A DNA stretch of 5,697 nucleotides from Dictyostelium discoideum (lineage: Eukaryota): positions 1 through 5,697 of the forward strand of contig CH709175.1 in assembly GCA_000004695.1 (NCBI GenBank), read 5' to 3'. The translations under genes and the position numbers were made by a program. Below are positions 1 to 5,697 of the stretch, piece after piece (positions within the stretch are counted from its first letter, which is position 1; the number at the start of each line of letters is the position of its first letter). The notes under the pieces are model-generated. The model searched no databases. It was not told the origin of the DNA and saw only the letters and a list, made by a program, of their open reading frames with translations.

Positions 1-983
1 TGCAAGTTAATGTCTGATAAAATATTATTTTTTAAATAAATATTTTCATTTTTTTTAATTATTTGCCCTACAATTAAATCATTATTGTCAACATCTTTTT
101 CTTTTAGATTGTTAAAATTATCTAAAAATGTTGCCATTAATATTTTTGTTACTCTTTCAAATTTATGTTGATCTTGGTTGTTTGTATTGTTTGTCAAAAG
201 GTCTTTAATTTTACTAAATTGTGCTTCAAATCTCTCTGCTGATGTAAATTTTGGTGCACCCCAATTTTTTATATATAAAGGATAATGTAATAAAAGGTGA
301 AAGTTGATTGGTTCATTTGGTATTATCATAAATATTTTTTTATTAAAATTTTTAACTAAATAATTTATTTTATCCAAATCATCTTCGTCGAAAGAATCTT
401 GATATAATAAAAAAGTAAGCTGAACCATTTCTTCTAATAATAAGAAATCATCATTTGATACATTTGATTTAGTAAAAAATAAAATATAATATAATATGCT
501 TCTATTCTCTCTACCTTTTCTTGTTTTTACACCAAATAAAGATTCTGATGGTGGTAAATGATCTGGAATGATTTTAGCTTCTTTTAATTTTTTTATAAAA
601 ATTGTAATTTGATCCTTATATTTTTTGAAAATATAATTTAAAACCCATTGTACAATACCCAATAATATGTTGTGTAAAATATCAGGTTGTAAGTACAAAT
701 AATTTATTTTTAAATTTTCTACCCAAGATCTGTCATAATCTATAATGCCAATTTTTTTCATTTTATGTTCTGTTTCTAATTTTAAAATTTTATTTTGAGG
801 ATTTGAAAAATCTTGTTTATTTGGTTTTGAATTGTGAAAGTCAATAATATCTTTTTGATTTCTATAATTTCCTTCTTTTAATAAATAATCGACACCTCTT
901 TATTTATCACATGTATGACATGAGAACTCATTGCAATTATAATGGTTAATCCTACAAGATGATCTAAATTCTGGTATATCCAT
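1..983 (-). CDS. The 5' part of an ORF for a Tnp2/En-Spm (CACTA)/KDZ-like transposase-related protein; the 3' end lies beyond window position 1. ATG at 983-981. An in-frame TAA at 902-900 (codon 28) suggests a pseudogene or degenerate TE copy. The alternative first ATG after the stop is at 761-759.
   Basis: Manual translation of the minus strand gives one continuous frame from 983 to position 3, with a single TAA at 902-900. It reads MDIPEFRSSCRINHYNCNEFSCHTCDK*RGVDYLL...MKKIGIIDYDRSWVENLKINYLYLQPDILHNILLGIVQWVLNYIFKKYKDQ...IPDHLPPSESLF...KKIFMIIPNEPINFHLLLHYPLYIKNWGAPKFTSAERFEAQFSKIKDLL... It shows collinear matches to motifs I recall from plant Tnp2/Transposase_21+DUF4218 proteins: D-V-M-H-I-E-K-N matches DILHN; GKTKD matches KKYKD; LPPACY matches LPPSES; IFPPSFFD-M-HL-VHLP...GPV...WMYP-ER...LK matches IFMIIPNEPINFHLLLHYP...GAP...ERF...IKD. 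The N-terminal C-x6-C-x4-C-x2-C cluster is reminiscent of the Cys-rich transposase-associated N-terminus. An oligo-T run lies immediately 5' of the ATG (rc of 984-1000), typical of Dictyostelium promoters. The family assignment is from memory of motifs, not a database search. Confidence 0.5.
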
Positions 984-1034
984 CACAGGGGCGAAAAAAA
1001 ATACTTAAAAGCATCTTTAAAGTAGGAACGTAAA

Positions 1035-1400
1035 TAGTACTATTATAAAGTATACTTATTAAGTATATTTATTAAGTATACTTATTAAGTATATTTATTA
1101 AGTATACTTATTAAGTATAATTATTAAGTATAATTAATAAGTATATTTAATAAGTATATTTATTAAGTATATTTATTAAGTATATTTATTAAGTATAATT
1201 AATAAGTATAATTAATAAGAATATTTATTAAGTATATTTATTAAGTATAATTATTAAGTATATTTATTAAGTATAATTATTAAGTTTATTTATTAAGTAT
1301 AATTATAAAATATAATTATTAATTAAAATTATTAAGTATAATTATTAAGCGTAATTATTAATTATAATTAATAAGGGTAATTTATAAGGGTAATTATAAA
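1035..1400. repeat. Tandem minisatellite of about 27 copies of a 13-bp unit, consensus AAGTATAYTTATT, degenerating toward 1400. Adjacent units form overlapping 17-nt near-palindromes TATACTTATTAAGTATA.
   Basis: Direct reading shows units at 1048, 1061, 1074, 1087, 1100, 1113, 1126, 1139, 1152, 1165, 1178, 1191, 1204, 1217, 1230, 1243, 1256, 1269, 1282, 1295 and onward, all 13 bp apart. The reverse complement of TATACTTATTAAGTATA is TATACTTAATAAGTATA, differing only at the central base. Confidence 0.9.
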
Positions 1401-1675
1401 GTTCACTTAATAAGAATACTTAAAAATAATAATTAAAAATAACATTTTATAATAATAATTTAAAATAAATTTTAAAAAAAAAAAAAAACTAAAAAAAAAA
1501 AAGAATTTATTAAAAAGTAAAAGTATTTGAAATCAGAAATTTTTTTATTTAATCTGTGAAAATTCTAAGTGTATTAATGACTTTAACAAGGGTCATACAA
1601 CATTTATAATTGACTAATTTGAAAAGCAGAACTTTATTTCCATTATAATTTGTACCAAAAGCATACTTTAGAAGG

Positions 1676-2030
1676 GGCAACCTAAAATATAATTATTTTT
1701 TTTAAAATTATATTAATCTCTTTATTTTATATTATTTTTTTTTTAAAAAAAAAAATTATATTGACTTACCAGTAATTATTTAAGTGAAGTATCAATTTGA
1801 TTGAAGTGATTGTTGGTATAATAAGAAAGGTAACCTAAAATTTAATTATTGTTTTTCAAATTAGTCTATTTTATTTTATTATTATTTTTTTTTTTTTTTT
1901 TTTAATTTTATTTTTTTTAAAAAATTATTTTAACTTACCAGTAATTATTTAATTGTGGTATCAATTTGTTTTAAAAAAACTGGGGGTTGGTTTTGATAGC
2001 ATTGGTATTATTGATGAAGTTGAAAAAATC
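1676..2030. repeat. Two tandem copies (1676-1828 and 1829 to about 2030) of a ~150-200-bp complex repeat. Each has a head GGYAACCTAAAATNTAATTATT, a T-rich spacer of variable length, a core ACTTACCAGTAATTATTTAAKTGWRGTATCAATTTG, and a tail containing GAAGT..TTGGTAT.
   Basis: Aligning 1676-1828 with 1829-1975 by eye shows matching heads (ggcaacctaaaatataattatt / ggtaacctaaaatttaattatt) and matching cores (gacttaccagtaattatttaagtgaagtatcaatttg / aacttaccagtaattatttaattgtggtatcaatttg). The spacers differ mainly in poly-T length. Confidence 0.75.
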
Positions 2031-2100
2031 TAAAAAAATATTTTTTTGTTTTTTTTATTTATATTAATTTTTTTATTTTTTTTTTTATATTTTTTTTTAA

Positions 2101-2190
2101 TTTTAATTATCTTACCTTACCAGTTTTGATTTAGTGCAGTTTCATTTTTATTTAAAATAAGCGAAGTTGGATAATATCAATTTAAATTGC
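2101..2190. repeat. A partial third copy of the same complex repeat: core cttaccttaccagttttgatttagtgcagtttcattttt and tail gcgaagttggataatatcaa, preceded by a T-rich spacer at 2031-2100.
   Basis: CTTACCAG...TTTAGTG.AGT.TCATTT is conserved with the cores at 1764-1799 and 1933-1968. The tail has GAAGTTGG like the tails of copies A and B. The GGYAACCTAAAAT head is missing. Confidence 0.55.
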
Positions 2191-2493
2191 CATTTCTTTT
2201 TGGTGTTCCAGATGATGCAATATTATTTTTTATATTTAATTTTTAAATAATAATTTAAGTCTGAAAAATAATACCCGCAACGAAAAAAAAAAAAAAAATT
2301 AAAAAAAAAAAAAATTGAAAAAAAAAAAATGAAAATAAAAATCCACGTAAAAACGTAAAAGTTATGTAAATAATATAACGATTCTTTTAATATTATTTGC
2401 TTATATAAAATAATAAAACAAAAAAAAAAAAAAGCAAAATATTTATAGGTTTAAAAAAAAATAAAAAAAAAAAAAAAAATATATTGCAAAAAA

Positions 2494-2576
2494 AAATAAA
2501 GCATGTTTTTTTTTAATTTAAATTTTTTTTTTTTTTAAAAATAAAGCATGTTTGTTTTTATTTAAATTTTTTTTCT
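2494..2576. repeat. Local direct duplication with a period of about 44 bp: AAATAAAGCATGTTT(G)TTTTT(T)AATTTAAATTTTTTTT, two copies.
   Basis: ataaagcatgttt occurs at 2497 and 2541 with matching flanks. Confidence 0.6.
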
Positions 2577-2649
2577 TGTGTTCATATTATTTATTATATT
2601 TCAATTATTAAATATTTTATTATTTTATATATATTATATTTTTATTTTC

Positions 2650-2727
2650 GTTAAAAAAAAAAAATTCCAAAATTTTTTATTTTTTTTGTGTTAAAAAAAA
2701 AATTCCTAAATTTTTTTTTTTATTGTA
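2650..2727. repeat. Local direct duplication with a period of about 40 bp: GTTAAAAAAAAAA(A)ATTCC(T)AAA-T(n)-ATT, two copies.
   Basis: gttaaaaaaaaaaaattccaaaattttttat is followed by gttaaaaaaaaaattcctaaattttttttttt. Confidence 0.6.
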
Positions 2728-2805
2728 TTTTTTTTCATCACACATAGAATTATTTAAATTTTTTTAATAATATCAATGTATTTTAACAACAAATGTATCA
2801 ATAAT

Positions 2806-2920
2806 ATTTTGGAAAAAAAAAAAAAAGGTAAAAAAAAAAGATAAAAAAAAAGGTAATAAAAAAGAAAAAAAAAAATTAAAGATAAAAAAAAAAGGTAAAA
2901 AAAAAAAAAAAATTAAAAAA
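2806..2920. repeat. Low-complexity purine-strand tract of A-runs punctuated by GGT/GAT at intervals of about 10-14 bp.
   Basis: Read directly: ggaaaaaaaaaaaaaaaggtaaaaaaaaaagataaaaaaaaaggtaataaaaaagaaaaaaaaaaaattaaagataaaaaaaaaaggtaaaaaaaaaaaaaaaatt. Confidence 0.6.
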
Positions 2921-2951
2921 GTAATTTTTTACAATGTTATTTTTTATATAA

Positions 2952-3092
2952 TTCTGAATATTATATCATTTTATTTATGTTTTATAGTTTCAGAAATATT
3001 CTGAATATTATTTCTCAGTGTATTTACAAATATTTATACAACATTAAATTAAAAAATAAAACATATCATTTTATTTGTGTTTTATAGTTTCA
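2952..3092. repeat. Dispersed direct repeats. A 30-bp unit ATATCATTTTATTT(A/G)TGTTTTATAGTTTCA occurs at 2963-2992 and 3063-3092. A 13-bp unit TTCTGAATATTAT occurs at 2952-2964 and 2999-3011.
   Basis: Direct reading; the two 30-mers differ at one position. Confidence 0.7.
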
Positions 3093-3152
3093 TTTTTTTT
3101 ATTATTTTTTTTAATTTTTTTACATTAATATTTCAGCTATTAATTTTGAAAA

Positions 3153-3210
3153 ATACTTATTAAGTATACTTAATAAGTATTACTTATTAAGTATACTTAT
3201 TAATATATAT
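3153..3210. repeat. A second, short patch (about 4 units) of the same near-palindromic AAGTATACTTATT / TACTTATTAAGTA repeat seen at 1035-1400.
   Basis: Direct reading: aatacttattaagtatacttaataagtattacttattaagtatacttattaatatatattaa. The unit and its reverse complement are interleaved. Confidence 0.8.
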
Positions 3211-3704
3211 TAAAAAGAGTACTTGGATTTAAAGGTGCTTTAAAGTGTTGATTTTCGCCGCTGTGAAATGTGAAAATTGTAAAATTAAATTTTTTAATAT
3301 CAATGAAGAAAGAAACTGTTCAAAAATTGGTAATAATTATTTAAAACTAGATGTTGAATATTCAACCGATACGAGACAAAAACAATTTTTAAAGTACAAG
3401 AATGAAAAAGAAAAATATTATGAAACAAAAACAAATTCAACTTCAAGTTCGGATAAAAATGAAATTAATATTTGCATTTTTCTTTTATTTTTTTTTTTTT
3501 TAATTTTAATTTTTTAAATAAAAAAAAATAATTAAAAAAAAAATAAAAAAAAAAAAAAATTATTAAAAAAAAAAAAAAAAAAAAAAAATTTATTAAAAAA
3601 AAAAATAAAAATTTATATTTTCAATATTAAAATAAAATGAATAAAATGAATAGAATTTTTATAATATTTATTTTTATAGTTTTTATTAATAAATCTTATC
3701 AATT

Positions 3705-4085
3705 TGTTGATAAAAAATGTAAAAGTCACTCACACTAATCTTCAATCCATTGTCACATTTGTTCAATCTTTAAAGTAATGTTTTTTAATATGAAGGATAG
3801 AAAGAGTGAAAGACTAATATCATAAAAGTAAACATACATAAAAGAGATAATTAAAAGTAAGGGCGTTATGAAACTAAACCGAAAATCAGAATTTTTATTA
3901 TTTTTTTTAAATTTTAATTTAATTTAATTTTTTTAATTTAATTTTTTATTTTTTGACTGAAAAAATAAAAAATTAAAAAATAAAAATAAAAATTAAATGA
4001 AATATTTTTACATGGAGATGCGCGAATTTGTTACGTTGTTGAGCTCATACTAACTTTAAATTAATTTAGTTTTGAGTCTCTAACA
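3705..4085 (-). mobile_element. 3' LTR of a Ty3/gypsy (chromovirus, Skipper-like) LTR retrotransposon. The 5' boundary of the LTR is at 4085 (TG...); the 3' boundary is approximate (3705 or 3718).
   Basis: On the minus strand the sequence immediately 3' of the polypurine tract begins TGTTAGAGACTCAAAAC. This region is less A+T-extreme than its flanks. Candidate ends ...CTTTTACA (plus-strand tgtaaaag at 3718) or ...TCAACA (3705) give an imperfect terminal inverted repeat with TGTTAGAG. No second LTR copy is in the window, so the 3' edge cannot be fixed. Confidence 0.55.
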
Positions 4086-4103
4086 CCTTCCCCTTCCTTC
4101 TTT
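4086..4103 (-). promoter_or_regulatory. Polypurine tract (PPT) AAAGAAGGAAGGGGAAGG, the plus-strand primer site, immediately 5' of the LTR.
   Basis: An 18-nt uninterrupted purine run lies on the minus strand (the rc of ccttccccttccttcttt). It starts 25 nt after the pol TAG stop and abuts TG of the LTR. Such a run is improbable by chance in roughly 80 percent A+T DNA. Confidence 0.75.
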
Positions 4104-4128
4104 AGGCTAGCTATGTCTCAGAAGTGGA

Positions 4129-5463
4129 CTATAAACTCTTGGGTGTAACTTTTCTTCCTGATCTAGTTGTTTTAATTTGTAAACTAAGATCAAGTTCATC
4201 ATCATCACTTGAAGTATTTTGATTTCTTGATTTTCTTTTCTTTGATTGGTTTCTTTGATTTGAGATGGAGTTTTGTTGTCTTGGAGTAATTGGTTGCAAT
4301 GTTTGAGAACTTTGAACTTCTTGGGAGAGTGGAGGTGACACAATTGGCTCAACGGCTTCTGTAGTTGCATTCTCTCTTTCTCTTCTTGAGTTCAATTGTT
4401 TCTTCTGCACGTTATTCCAATACTCTCTGACTAACTCTTCACAGTCTGTATCGACTTCTTTGATCCATTCAGGTTCTGGGTAACCTTTGAACTTCACTAG
4501 GTACATCTTTTTGACTTTATCGTGATTGAGAATACTTTCAACTTCGTAACTTGCTTCGTCCATCTCCTCAGGTTCGGGCATCGATATCTCTTCTCTTAAC
4601 CACTCACTGTCCTCGTATAGTTTTACGATTTGATCCTTGTTGAACACATTGTGTTTCTTTGGATAACCTATTAAATCGAGTGTTACATTATTACCATGAA
4701 CGGCAGTGATTATGAATGGTCCACAATTCTTGGATTCAAGTTTGTGAGAGATTAGATCTTTTGAAATGTTAGTTTGGAAGAATTTTCTTTTAACCATAAC
4801 CTTTTCTCCGACTACGAAGATAACATCACCACGACCTCGGTTGTAGTAGTTTTGAGCATTGATTTGAGCATCTAGTATATTATCACGGACAATCTTTTTG
4901 ATGTTGCTCATTGGTATACGAGTCTTTGTTAATGAATTGAAATGATTAACGGGAGTTGGTGGATTGAATCCATAAACGATTTGGAATGGTGACATCTTTG
5001 TAGACTTGCTCATTGATGAGTTCATTGCAAATTCAATAAGTGGAATGATATCAGAACAAATCTCCCCATACTCTGTTGAGGCTTTAGTTAATATTCTAAT
5101 AATTTCTCTATTCATTCTTTCAGTTTGACCATCAGCTTGTGCTCTGTGTGCCACAGTCATCTTGAGTTTAGAATCCATCGTCTTTGTCCATCTCTCCCAT
5201 ATTTCTGAAAGGAATCTTGGATCTCTATCGGAGACGATTGTTCTTGGATAACCATGGAGTCTGAACACATGATTCAACAATAATTGAGCAGTATGTTGGG
5301 CATCTATTGTCTTATGACATGGAACTATATGAACCATTTTAGATAATCTACAAACAATGACACAAACTTGATCGACTTCAACTGTAAATCCGTTTATTGC
5401 ATACATTGTTTTTGGTAGCGATAAGAAATCGATTGATATATCTCTCCAAGTGAAAACTACCAT
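4129..5463 (-). CDS. pol: C-terminal part of Ty3/gypsy pol: integrase catalytic core (DDE) + GPF module + chromodomain + basic S/Q/N-rich tail. TAG stop at 4131-4129.
   Basis: The 444-aa ORF carries the rve-type core. It contains WRDISIDF (D12), IVSDRDPRF (D79) and HRAQADGQTER (E115), with the canonical D..D-35-E spacing (D79 to E115 is 36 residues). The GPF motif NCGPFIITAVHGNNVTLDL sits at aa 247-264. The chromodomain SYEVESILNHDKVKKMYLVKFKGYPEPEWIKEVDTDCEELVREYW sits at aa 305-349 (4417-4551). The KKRKSR basic cluster is at aa 408-413. A chromodomain fused to the integrase C-terminus defines chromoviruses, and Skipper is the Dictyostelium example. Confidence 0.9.
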   Translation of the reverse strand: MVVFTWRDISIDFLSLPKTMYAINGFTVEVDQVCVIVCRLSKMVHIVPCHKTIDAQHTAQLLLNHVFRLHGYPRTIVSDRDPRFLSEIWERWTKTMDSKLKMTVAHRAQADGQTERMNREIIRILTKASTEYGEICSDIIPLIEFAMNSSMSKSTKMSPFQIVYGFNPPTPVNHFNSLTKTRIPMSNIKKIVRDNILDAQINAQNYYNRGRGDVIFVVGEKVMVKRKFFQTNISKDLISHKLESKNCGPFIITAVHGNNVTLDLIGYPKKHNVFNKDQIVKLYEDSEWLREEISMPEPEEMDEASYEVESILNHDKVKKMYLVKFKGYPEPEWIKEVDTDCEELVREYWNNVQKKQLNSRRERENATTEAVEPIVSPPLSQEVQSSQTLQPITPRQQNSISNQRNQSKKRKSRNQNTSSDDDELDLSLQIKTTRSGRKVTPKSL

Positions 5464-5697
5464 TGTTTAGATTATTATTATCTGAATGGATTGGCATGTC
5501 TGTTGATGCTTTAACCTTTTCGATATCTATTGGTATGGAGTTATCTTGTTCAATTGGAATAGCGACAATATTTTCACCTTCAAACTCTTTCTTTAGATTA
5601 TTGAATTCTTTGAGTGATTCATCAGAAAGAGTTTTCTTGTTTTTCCCTTTTGATTCTTTGGAAAGGTGATAGGTTTTTTCAGCGTAATTTTCAATGG
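5464..5697 (-). CDS. pol: Upstream pol segment, open from the window edge in a frame offset by one nt from the integrase-core ORF. It overlaps the integrase ORF and stops at 5380-5378. No HHCC zinc finger is recognisable.
   Basis: Only one minus-strand frame is open across 5464-5697: IENYAEKTYHLSKESKGKNKKTLSDESLKEFNNLKKEFEGENIVAIPIEQDNSIPIDIEKVKASTDMPIHSDNNNLNN. The other two frames contain multiple stops. The integrase-core frame opens only at 5466, with TAA at 5469-5467. Confidence 0.4.

Follow-up and report, generated by a model that had tools for sequence, protein, structure and literature searches.

What is the open reading frame (ORF) that occupies the minus strand at the left edge of a 5,697-nucleotide stretch of Dictyostelium discoideum DNA (hereafter the window; GenBank assembly GCA_000004695.1, contig CH709175.1, positions 1 to 5,697)? 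A sequence-only reading of this DNA had recognized in the ORF an ordered series of eight motifs known from the Tnp2 transposases of CACTA elements and from KDZ proteins, together with an N-terminal cysteine cluster, and had suggested either a poorly described DNA-transposon family or a domesticated derivative. Our analysis indicates that window positions 1–983 are very probably a dead transposase fragment from a multi-copy DNA transposon confined to D. discoideum, and that this transposon belongs, as a very divergent member, to the CMC/CMCT clade, used here to mean CACTA/EnSpm, Mirage and Chapaev, with Transib and RAG1 as structural relatives.

Translation of the minus strand from position 983 to position 1 gives a single continuous frame of 327 codons with no frameshifts and one in-frame TAA, in a region of extreme AT richness (10–24% G+C across window positions 1–4000). 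All eight motifs are present and collinear: DILHN (669–683, the histidine-containing part of the conserved PDILHNILLG), KYKD (612–623), LPP (549–557), IFMIIP (318–335), HLLLHYP (279–299), GAP (252–260), ERFE (225–236) and IKD (201–209). Within this series HLLLH (285–299) forms an H(3)H motif upstream of the putative catalytic Glu codon (225–227, the last E of SAERF-E). The cysteine cluster, C-x7-C-x4-C-x2-C (CRINHYNCNEFSCHTC, 909–956, minus strand), is also there, and its final four residues, CHTC (909–920), constitute the C(2)C motif of CMC transposases as defined in PMC12730594. Its supposed N-terminal position did not survive comparison with intact genes: this copy starts at codon 370, and the cluster follows the second catalytic Asp (978–980, the D of M-D-IPEF).

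The window ORF aligns without gaps to intact ORFs at three other loci, L004, L005 and L007, at 91.0%, 98.9% and 93.8% nucleotide identity, respectively, with the alignment beginning at codon 370 of the intact gene (367 in L007). The nearest match, at 98.9% nucleotide identity, is a copy in D. discoideum assembly GCA_054883475.1. Because the relatives' sequence continues upstream of the first residues of the ORF (...IIPYGLT-MDIPEFR...), the window copy is truncated at its 5' end; it spans codons 370–696 of an 818-codon ORF and, as had been anticipated, leaves the window at position 1, whereas intact relatives extend approximately 122 residues further. The first catalytic Asp (LLRIFS-D-G of intact copies) is missing, leaving only the second Asp and the Glu, and the TAA at fragment codon 28 (900–902) stands where intact copies have CCA (Pro) or GCA (Ala). 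Lacking codons 1–369, with the zinc finger and first catalytic Asp, and carrying this stop, the window copy is predicted to be inactive. It lies amid other transposon debris, and searches of the window for tRNA genes and Rfam families found none.

A database search with the window ORF matched only D. discoideum 'hypothetical proteins', none of which had a Pfam domain, and a second search with composite full-length queries yielded 32 proteins. Two models appear intact: P0017 (818 amino acids), from the window's own subfamily A, and P0019 (831 amino acids), from subfamily B, the proteins of the two subfamilies being about 50% identical. Altogether the family numbers dozens of copies in D. discoideum. 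The transposase is encoded by an intron-less ORF of 818–831 codons and begins with a zinc-finger-like (C2H2-like) motif, C-x2-C-x12-H-x3-H, followed by an Asn-rich linker and a core of approximately 450 residues that contains the D-D-E, C(2)C and H(3)H motifs; the final 125 or so residues form a C-terminal domain rich in beta structure. For this last domain, a profile search of PDB sequences returned nothing relevant and Pfam gave no BAH match. A second, intron-containing ORF of approximately 260 amino acids (ORF2) is always found 3' of the transposase; its sole Pfam match is to a histone-fold model and is borderline (21.8 bits against a gathering cutoff of 21).

We then turned to the proposed relation to Tnp2, which direct comparison did not reveal: hmmscan of Pfam, including PF02992 and PF13960, left the window ORF with no family at E ≤ 1, and seven longer relatives, scanned at E ≤ 10, had no match to Tnp2, DUF4218, Plavaka or KDZ models. 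An exhaustive profile search, in which the A4 profile built from six core sequences was compared with 1.84 billion representatives at E ≤ 1e-3, recovered 84 proteins, approximately 65 of them from outside Dictyostelium (E from 6e-8 to 1e-3). Nearly all of the remote matches align at profile positions of about 300–510, which correspond to the motif block picked out in the sequence-only reading. When 69 remote matches were annotated with Pfam, 13 carried Transposase_21 (Tnp2), seven DUF1258, five DUF4218 and one Plavaka, several of them exceeding Pfam gathering thresholds, and no unrelated family recurred among the 69. The closest detectable proteins bear PF02992, PF13960 or PF06869; those with names are insect proteins, from Solenopsis invicta (PF02992), Vollenhovia emeryi and Venturia canescens, and identity to the nearest relatives is only about 15–20%. 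Since every intermediate match in this search came from D. discoideum, the family has no detectable relative in other dictyostelids, and none was found among other amoebozoans represented in it.

In long alignments, LLRIFS-D-G pairs with ..T-D-G.., TM-D-IPEF...C..CHTC with ..G-D-AP...C-x2-C, PDIL-H-N with PEYM-H-S, and NF-H-LLL-H...WGAP..SAERF-E with N-H-QLL-H..WGP..SAFPF-E. An alignment of 20 remote proteins contains 11 invariant columns (D276, D364, C383, C386, H474, H607, H611, G620, S626, F630 and E631), and all 11 pair with identical residues in the Dictyostelium proteins. The proposed catalytic triad, LLRIFS-D-G, TM-D-IPEF and SAERF-E, falls on invariant D276, D364 and E631. In the window copy, the Asp codon at 978–980 pairs with D364, the end of the cysteine cluster with C383 and C386, DILHN with H474 (PEYMHS or VDYMHA in the remote set), HLLLH with H607 and H611, and the Glu codon at 225–227 with the F630-E631 pair (SAFPFE).

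Profile-to-profile alignment of the family with the remote set (hhalign) gave a probability of 99.8% and an E-value of 9.6e-28 over 505 columns, and a reciprocal profile built exclusively from non-Dictyostelium Tnp2-like proteins gave 130 bits for P0019, 127 bits for P0017 and, for the window ORF by itself, 117.9 bits (bias 5.8; E of about 5e-29 when scaled to 1.84e9 sequences), although both the hhalign and the reciprocal scores are partly circular because the remote set was picked by its similarity to the Dictyostelium profile. These scores bear on whether the motif series could have arisen by chance or from composition in an unrelated host gene or a spurious ORF, a suspicion that the failure of direct Pfam matching and the richness of these proteins in Asn, Lys and Ile might encourage. 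Yet 400 shuffles of the window ORF, matched for composition, scored no higher than 4 bits with the same reciprocal profile, the 11 invariant columns all pair with identical Dictyostelium residues, and the RAG1 and Transib fold matches described below agree with the assignment, so that we give coincidence practically no credence. As no Pfam model matches the family directly, membership in the clade rests on profile-level and fold-level evidence.

The fold-level evidence comes from predicted structures. AlphaFold run on a six-sequence alignment restricted to Dictyostelium produced an unusable model (mean pLDDT 38), and the addition of nine divergent relatives, in an alignment that thereby contained Tnp2-like proteins, gave a mediocre one (mean pLDDT 51, pTM 0.46), in which residues of about 230–450 reached a pLDDT of 70–89 and the beta-strand region around the first and second catalytic Asp remained below 50. 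The best structural matches to this model were RAG1 and Transib, with TM-scores to RAG1 of approximately 0.3, and the fold of the transposase is accordingly modelled as RAG1/Transib-like. A search of PDB sequences with a profile of the family alignment gave no match.

[quoted passage not shown] Intact members are approximately 5.1–7.8 kb long and are bounded by imperfect inverted repeats of approximately 39 bp, with 5'-CACAG...CTGTG-3' at every terminus examined across three subtypes of terminal inverted repeat (TIR). Subfamily A has 13-bp subterminal arrays at both ends. Its intact element at L004 measures 7,793 bp (positions 4434–12226 of that locus) and comprises the 818-amino-acid ORF (8001–10457), a second gene (10610–11532) and 13-bp arrays of 37.2 copies on the 3' side and 14.9 copies on the 5' side. 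Complete elements of subfamily B are 5,056–5,580 bp long and have related termini (CACAGCAAAGAAAA...), but their subterminal arrays, of 23 bp and 11 bp, are unlike those of subfamily A. The 5' ends in L004, L005 and L007 lie upstream of the transposase genes, and the 3'-type terminus is found approximately 700 bp 3' of ORF2 in L004 and approximately 500 bp 3' of it in L002. L002 also contains a GC-rich insert, for which no Escherichia coli match was found. All six complete elements, which together represent the three terminus subtypes, are flanked by a perfect 2-bp TSD (TA, CG, CT, TT, AA and GG; chance of a match 0.095 per pair), and in none does the duplication reach 3 bp.

These results also bear on the other half of the original suggestion, that the ORF might belong to a KDZ (Kyakuja/Dileera/Zisupton) transposon. 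KDZ and the Dictyostelium proteins are alike in being large D-D-E transposases of eukaryotes that contain Cys-rich regions, and the sequence-only reading had pointed to an H..H..GP..ER-like block common to KDZ and Tnp2 proteins, but no analysis spoke for KDZ specifically. Against this, none of the 69 remote relatives matches a KDZ model and all 26 family matches among them are to Tnp2, DUF4218, DUF1258 or Plavaka; the best structural matches are RAG1 and Transib; and the elements contain no TET/JBP passenger gene. All six complete elements have TSDs of 2 bp, as against 8 bp in Zisupton, and Plavaka is itself grouped with EnSpm and not with KDZ (PMC12730594). A KDZ affiliation is thus very unlikely, and we retain the placement in the CMC/CMCT clade.

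Could the ORF instead be a domesticated transposase derivative, kept by the host for a cellular function? The dN/dS ratio of 0.20–0.21 between diverged family copies indicates purifying selection and would fit such a role, but selection on an active transposase explains it, and between the window copy and its nearest relative the ratio is 0.75, a value based on nine differences only. Moreover, copies of the family number in the dozens and show inverted termini and target duplications, the exhaustive search found no orthologue in any other species, and the copy at issue lacks its first 369 codons, and with them one catalytic Asp, is interrupted by an in-frame TAA and lies among transposon debris. 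We consider domestication extremely unlikely and read the ORF as a decayed member of a transposon family.

Directly beside the fragment, the window holds a second member of the family, a non-autonomous element of 2,282 bp (984–3265, minus strand) whose termini at 984 and 3265 correspond to the right and left ends, respectively, of the intact L004 element; the latter is bounded by the same termini and arrays. One TIR, at 984–1022 (plus strand, CACAGGGGCGAAAAAAAATACTTAAAAGCATCTTTAAAG), matches the other terminus at 32 of 39 positions, and the other, at 3227–3265 (minus strand, CACAGCGGCGAAAATCAACACTTTAAAGCACCTTTAAAT), matches the 5' ends in L004 (4434), L005 (4699) and L007 (6464). Because the two ends of an element differ beyond approximately 39 bp, the terminus at 984 could be assigned to the 3' type and that at 3265 to the 5' type, so that the 984–3265 element is a non-autonomous relative oriented like the transposase fragment; it contains no transposase of its own. 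Tandem Repeats Finder (TRF) identified 27.8 copies of the 13-bp unit ATTATTAAGTATA on its 3' side (1042–1402) and 4.2 copies of the same unit on its 5' side (3153–3207). Its ends and a 210-bp internal block are shared with another short element, at positions 13817–16563 of locus L006. As both termini and both arrays are kept, the element could in principle be mobilized in trans by intact copies elsewhere.

The first codon of the transposase fragment directly abuts the terminus CACAGGGGCGAAAA... at 984, and we asked whether the short element had simply inserted into the transposase gene. Simple insertion was rejected on two counts: the flanks of the 984–3265 element read AT and AA, that is, there is no 2-bp target-site duplication, and the DNA past 3265 does not encode the expected upstream codons (...IIPYGLT). 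For these reasons, the 983/984 junction is a rearrangement. We also considered whether an ORF at 3245–3517 (plus strand) might be the zinc-finger N terminus of another copy and discarded this, as it starts inside the TIR and has no significant match to the family. Positions 3266–3711 had no match in the loci compared.

Is this family new to Dictyostelium? DNA transposons of D. discoideum fall into the Tdd, DDT and thug groups, and the DDT elements (DDT-A, DDT-B and DDT-S) were reportedly catalogued by Glockner et al. in 2001. The sequence-only reading had set the family apart from these groups; its description as poorly characterized holds in that the superfamily went unrecognized, but the elements themselves have most likely been catalogued already. 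Tdd was set aside because PMC2836005 describes the transposases of Tdd-4 and Tdd-5 as integrase-like. DDT is a closer fit. Like the present family, DDT elements are presumed DNA transposons whose transposase had not been classified, and they are numerous in D. discoideum: no other group is as abundant, and they gather in centromeres alongside DIRS-1 and Skipper (PMC2665215). They have also been described as rearranged fragments (PMC9012585). Abundant DIRS-like and LTR-retroelement genes neighbour the loci of our family, and the DDT-B consensus, at 5,471 bp, lies within the 5,056–5,580 bp range of subfamily B. Because this length and these neighbours fit DDT, the family is probably DDT, a likeness drawn from described length, abundance and neighbours. 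A superfamily for DDT may already be listed in Repbase.

Taken with the conserved catalytic residues, homology, inverted termini, 2-bp TSDs, purifying selection and the RAG1/Transib-like predicted fold, the anatomy described above points to a cut-and-paste transposon. By analogy with the rest of the clade, the zinc finger, ORF2 or both would recognize the termini as well as the subterminal arrays, after which the D-D-E site would cut at the CACAG ends and excise the element, probably via hairpins on the flanking DNA as in RAG1 and Transib, and the element would be reinserted with a 2-bp stagger.

The ORF in the window is no more than a common kind of dead transposon remnant; what is useful here is that its family now has a described anatomy and a superfamily assignment. 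With this assignment, amoeba transposons described as lacking known relatives would gain a place in the CACTA/Mirage/Chapaev clade, and Amoebozoa would be added to the range of the clade by way of a very divergent lineage, represented in present databases by D. discoideum only. Catalytic residues, termini, a 2-bp TSD and non-autonomous derivatives are identified for what appears to be an abundant, centromere-associated family, and these offer concrete residues and DNA sites for transposition tests in a tractable haploid model. Repeat annotation should benefit as well, with dozens of 'hypothetical protein' models in new D. discoideum assemblies being transposase copies.

Among known systems, RAG1, the RAG1L of ProtoRAG and Transib, all with solved structures, resemble the family in predicted fold, but the Transib TSD is 5 bp as against 2 bp here, there is no sequence-level match to the PDB chains, and the nearest relatives are Tnp2-like and not Transib-like. 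With Mirage and Chapaev the family shares the clade-level motifs, and seven of the 69 remote relatives match DUF1258, a Caenorhabditis family that we take to represent Mirage-like transposases; the Mirage TSD is 2 bp. Across the CMC/CMCT clade as a whole, for which TSDs of 2–5 bp are reported (PMC12730594), the shared features comprise the D-D-E triad, C(2)C and H(3)H motifs, CAC..GTG termini, 2-bp TSD, profile homology and fold, and the one expected feature that is absent is a direct Pfam match to Transposase_21, DUF4218 or Plavaka.

The remaining choice is one of rank within the clade, since the family might form a separate lineage of the wider CMCT group, comparable to ESTA, Lanisha or Plavaka. 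Such a refinement of our main explanation is plausible, though we incline slightly against it. It would account for the direct failure of the Tnp2 and DUF4218 models, the low identity to the nearest relatives, the lack of relatives in other amoebozoans and the departures from classical CACTA elements, namely CACAG in place of the CACTA pentanucleotide and a TSD of 2 bp in place of 3 bp. On the other hand, the closest detectable proteins carry Tnp2, DUF4218 or DUF1258 domains, and CACTA elements with CAC..GTG termini and 2-bp TSDs are on record (PMC6004678), so the short duplication does not bar CACTA membership. ORF2 has no demonstrated similarity to the CACTA/En-Spm protein TnpA, its borderline histone-fold match being all that it offers for comparison. 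In other respects the family and CACTA/En-Spm are alike: in each, the D-D-E core carries C(2)C behind its second Asp and H(3)H ahead of its Glu, the termini open with CAC, short repeats build up long subterminal arrays, and a second ORF follows the transposase downstream.

Directly abutting the truncated transposase (window 1–983, minus strand), a dead gene fragment, is a non-autonomous member of its transposon family (window 984–3265; 2,282 bp), in which both termini and both of the subterminal 13-bp repeat arrays of subfamily A are present. Because no 2-bp target duplication was found at this element (flanks AT versus AA), the 983/984 junction is a rearrangement. Within the element, a unit occurs in three diverged copies (window 1676–2160; 65–78% identity) spaced 153–198 bp apart, and on the minus strand each closes with a motif resembling the 5′ splice site GGTAAG(T) (for example, ...ACTGGTAAGTCAA). 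This region looks as if a short exon–intron unit had been triplicated.

Copies of subfamily A, to which the window's transposase fragment belongs, range from ~5.8 to 7.8 kb, in part because one of them, at another family-bearing genomic locus, carries a nested MITE-like element of 1,557 bp in its 5′ region (L005 6043–7599). This insertion has a TT target duplication and is bounded by a third terminus subtype (CACAGCAAAGAAAAATGCACC...), which was also found at L003 1266, L003 14872 and L005 10594. The family's second gene (~260 aa) contains introns and was located at L001 11680–12665, L004 10610–11532 and L006 10619–11610. Its product matched the Pfam histone-fold family Bromo_TP_like at a borderline score (21.8 bits, where the cutoff is 21; E = 2.3e-4) and may be a DNA- or chromatin-binding accessory protein of the element.

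Other DNA was also observed in these loci. Two outward-facing 3′-type ends, the termini downstream of the second gene, flank a GC-rich segment of 266 bp at L002 12705–12970, the translation of which, judged by eye, resembles a bacterial membrane-transporter fragment (EamA-like). A search of E. coli genomes yielded no match to this segment, which could represent either a chimeric join in the assembly or foreign DNA that was captured. At L006 11919–13885, next to an element of subfamily B, another branch of the family, a gene model contains the transposase domain DDE_1 of the pogo/Tigger type, which suggests an additional, unrelated DNA-transposon family within the same cluster.

Starting within the 5′-type TIR of the short element (the type that lies upstream of transposase genes in longer copies), a 90-aa ORF (window 3245–3517, plus strand) extends into unassigned AT-rich DNA. 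It encodes a C-x2-C close to its start, had no significant match in a family search and is probably a chance ORF; comparison of window 3266–3711 with the fetched loci also produced no match. The remaining DNA (window 3712–5697, minus strand) is an LTR retrotransposon fragment, including an LTR-like block (window 3712–4130) that is also found at both ends of the L005 retroelement copies. Its 444-aa ORF (window 4129–5463) has matches, each weak, to an integrase core (rve), a Tf2-type SH3 domain and a chromodomain; the retroelement looks like a Skipper-like chromovirus.
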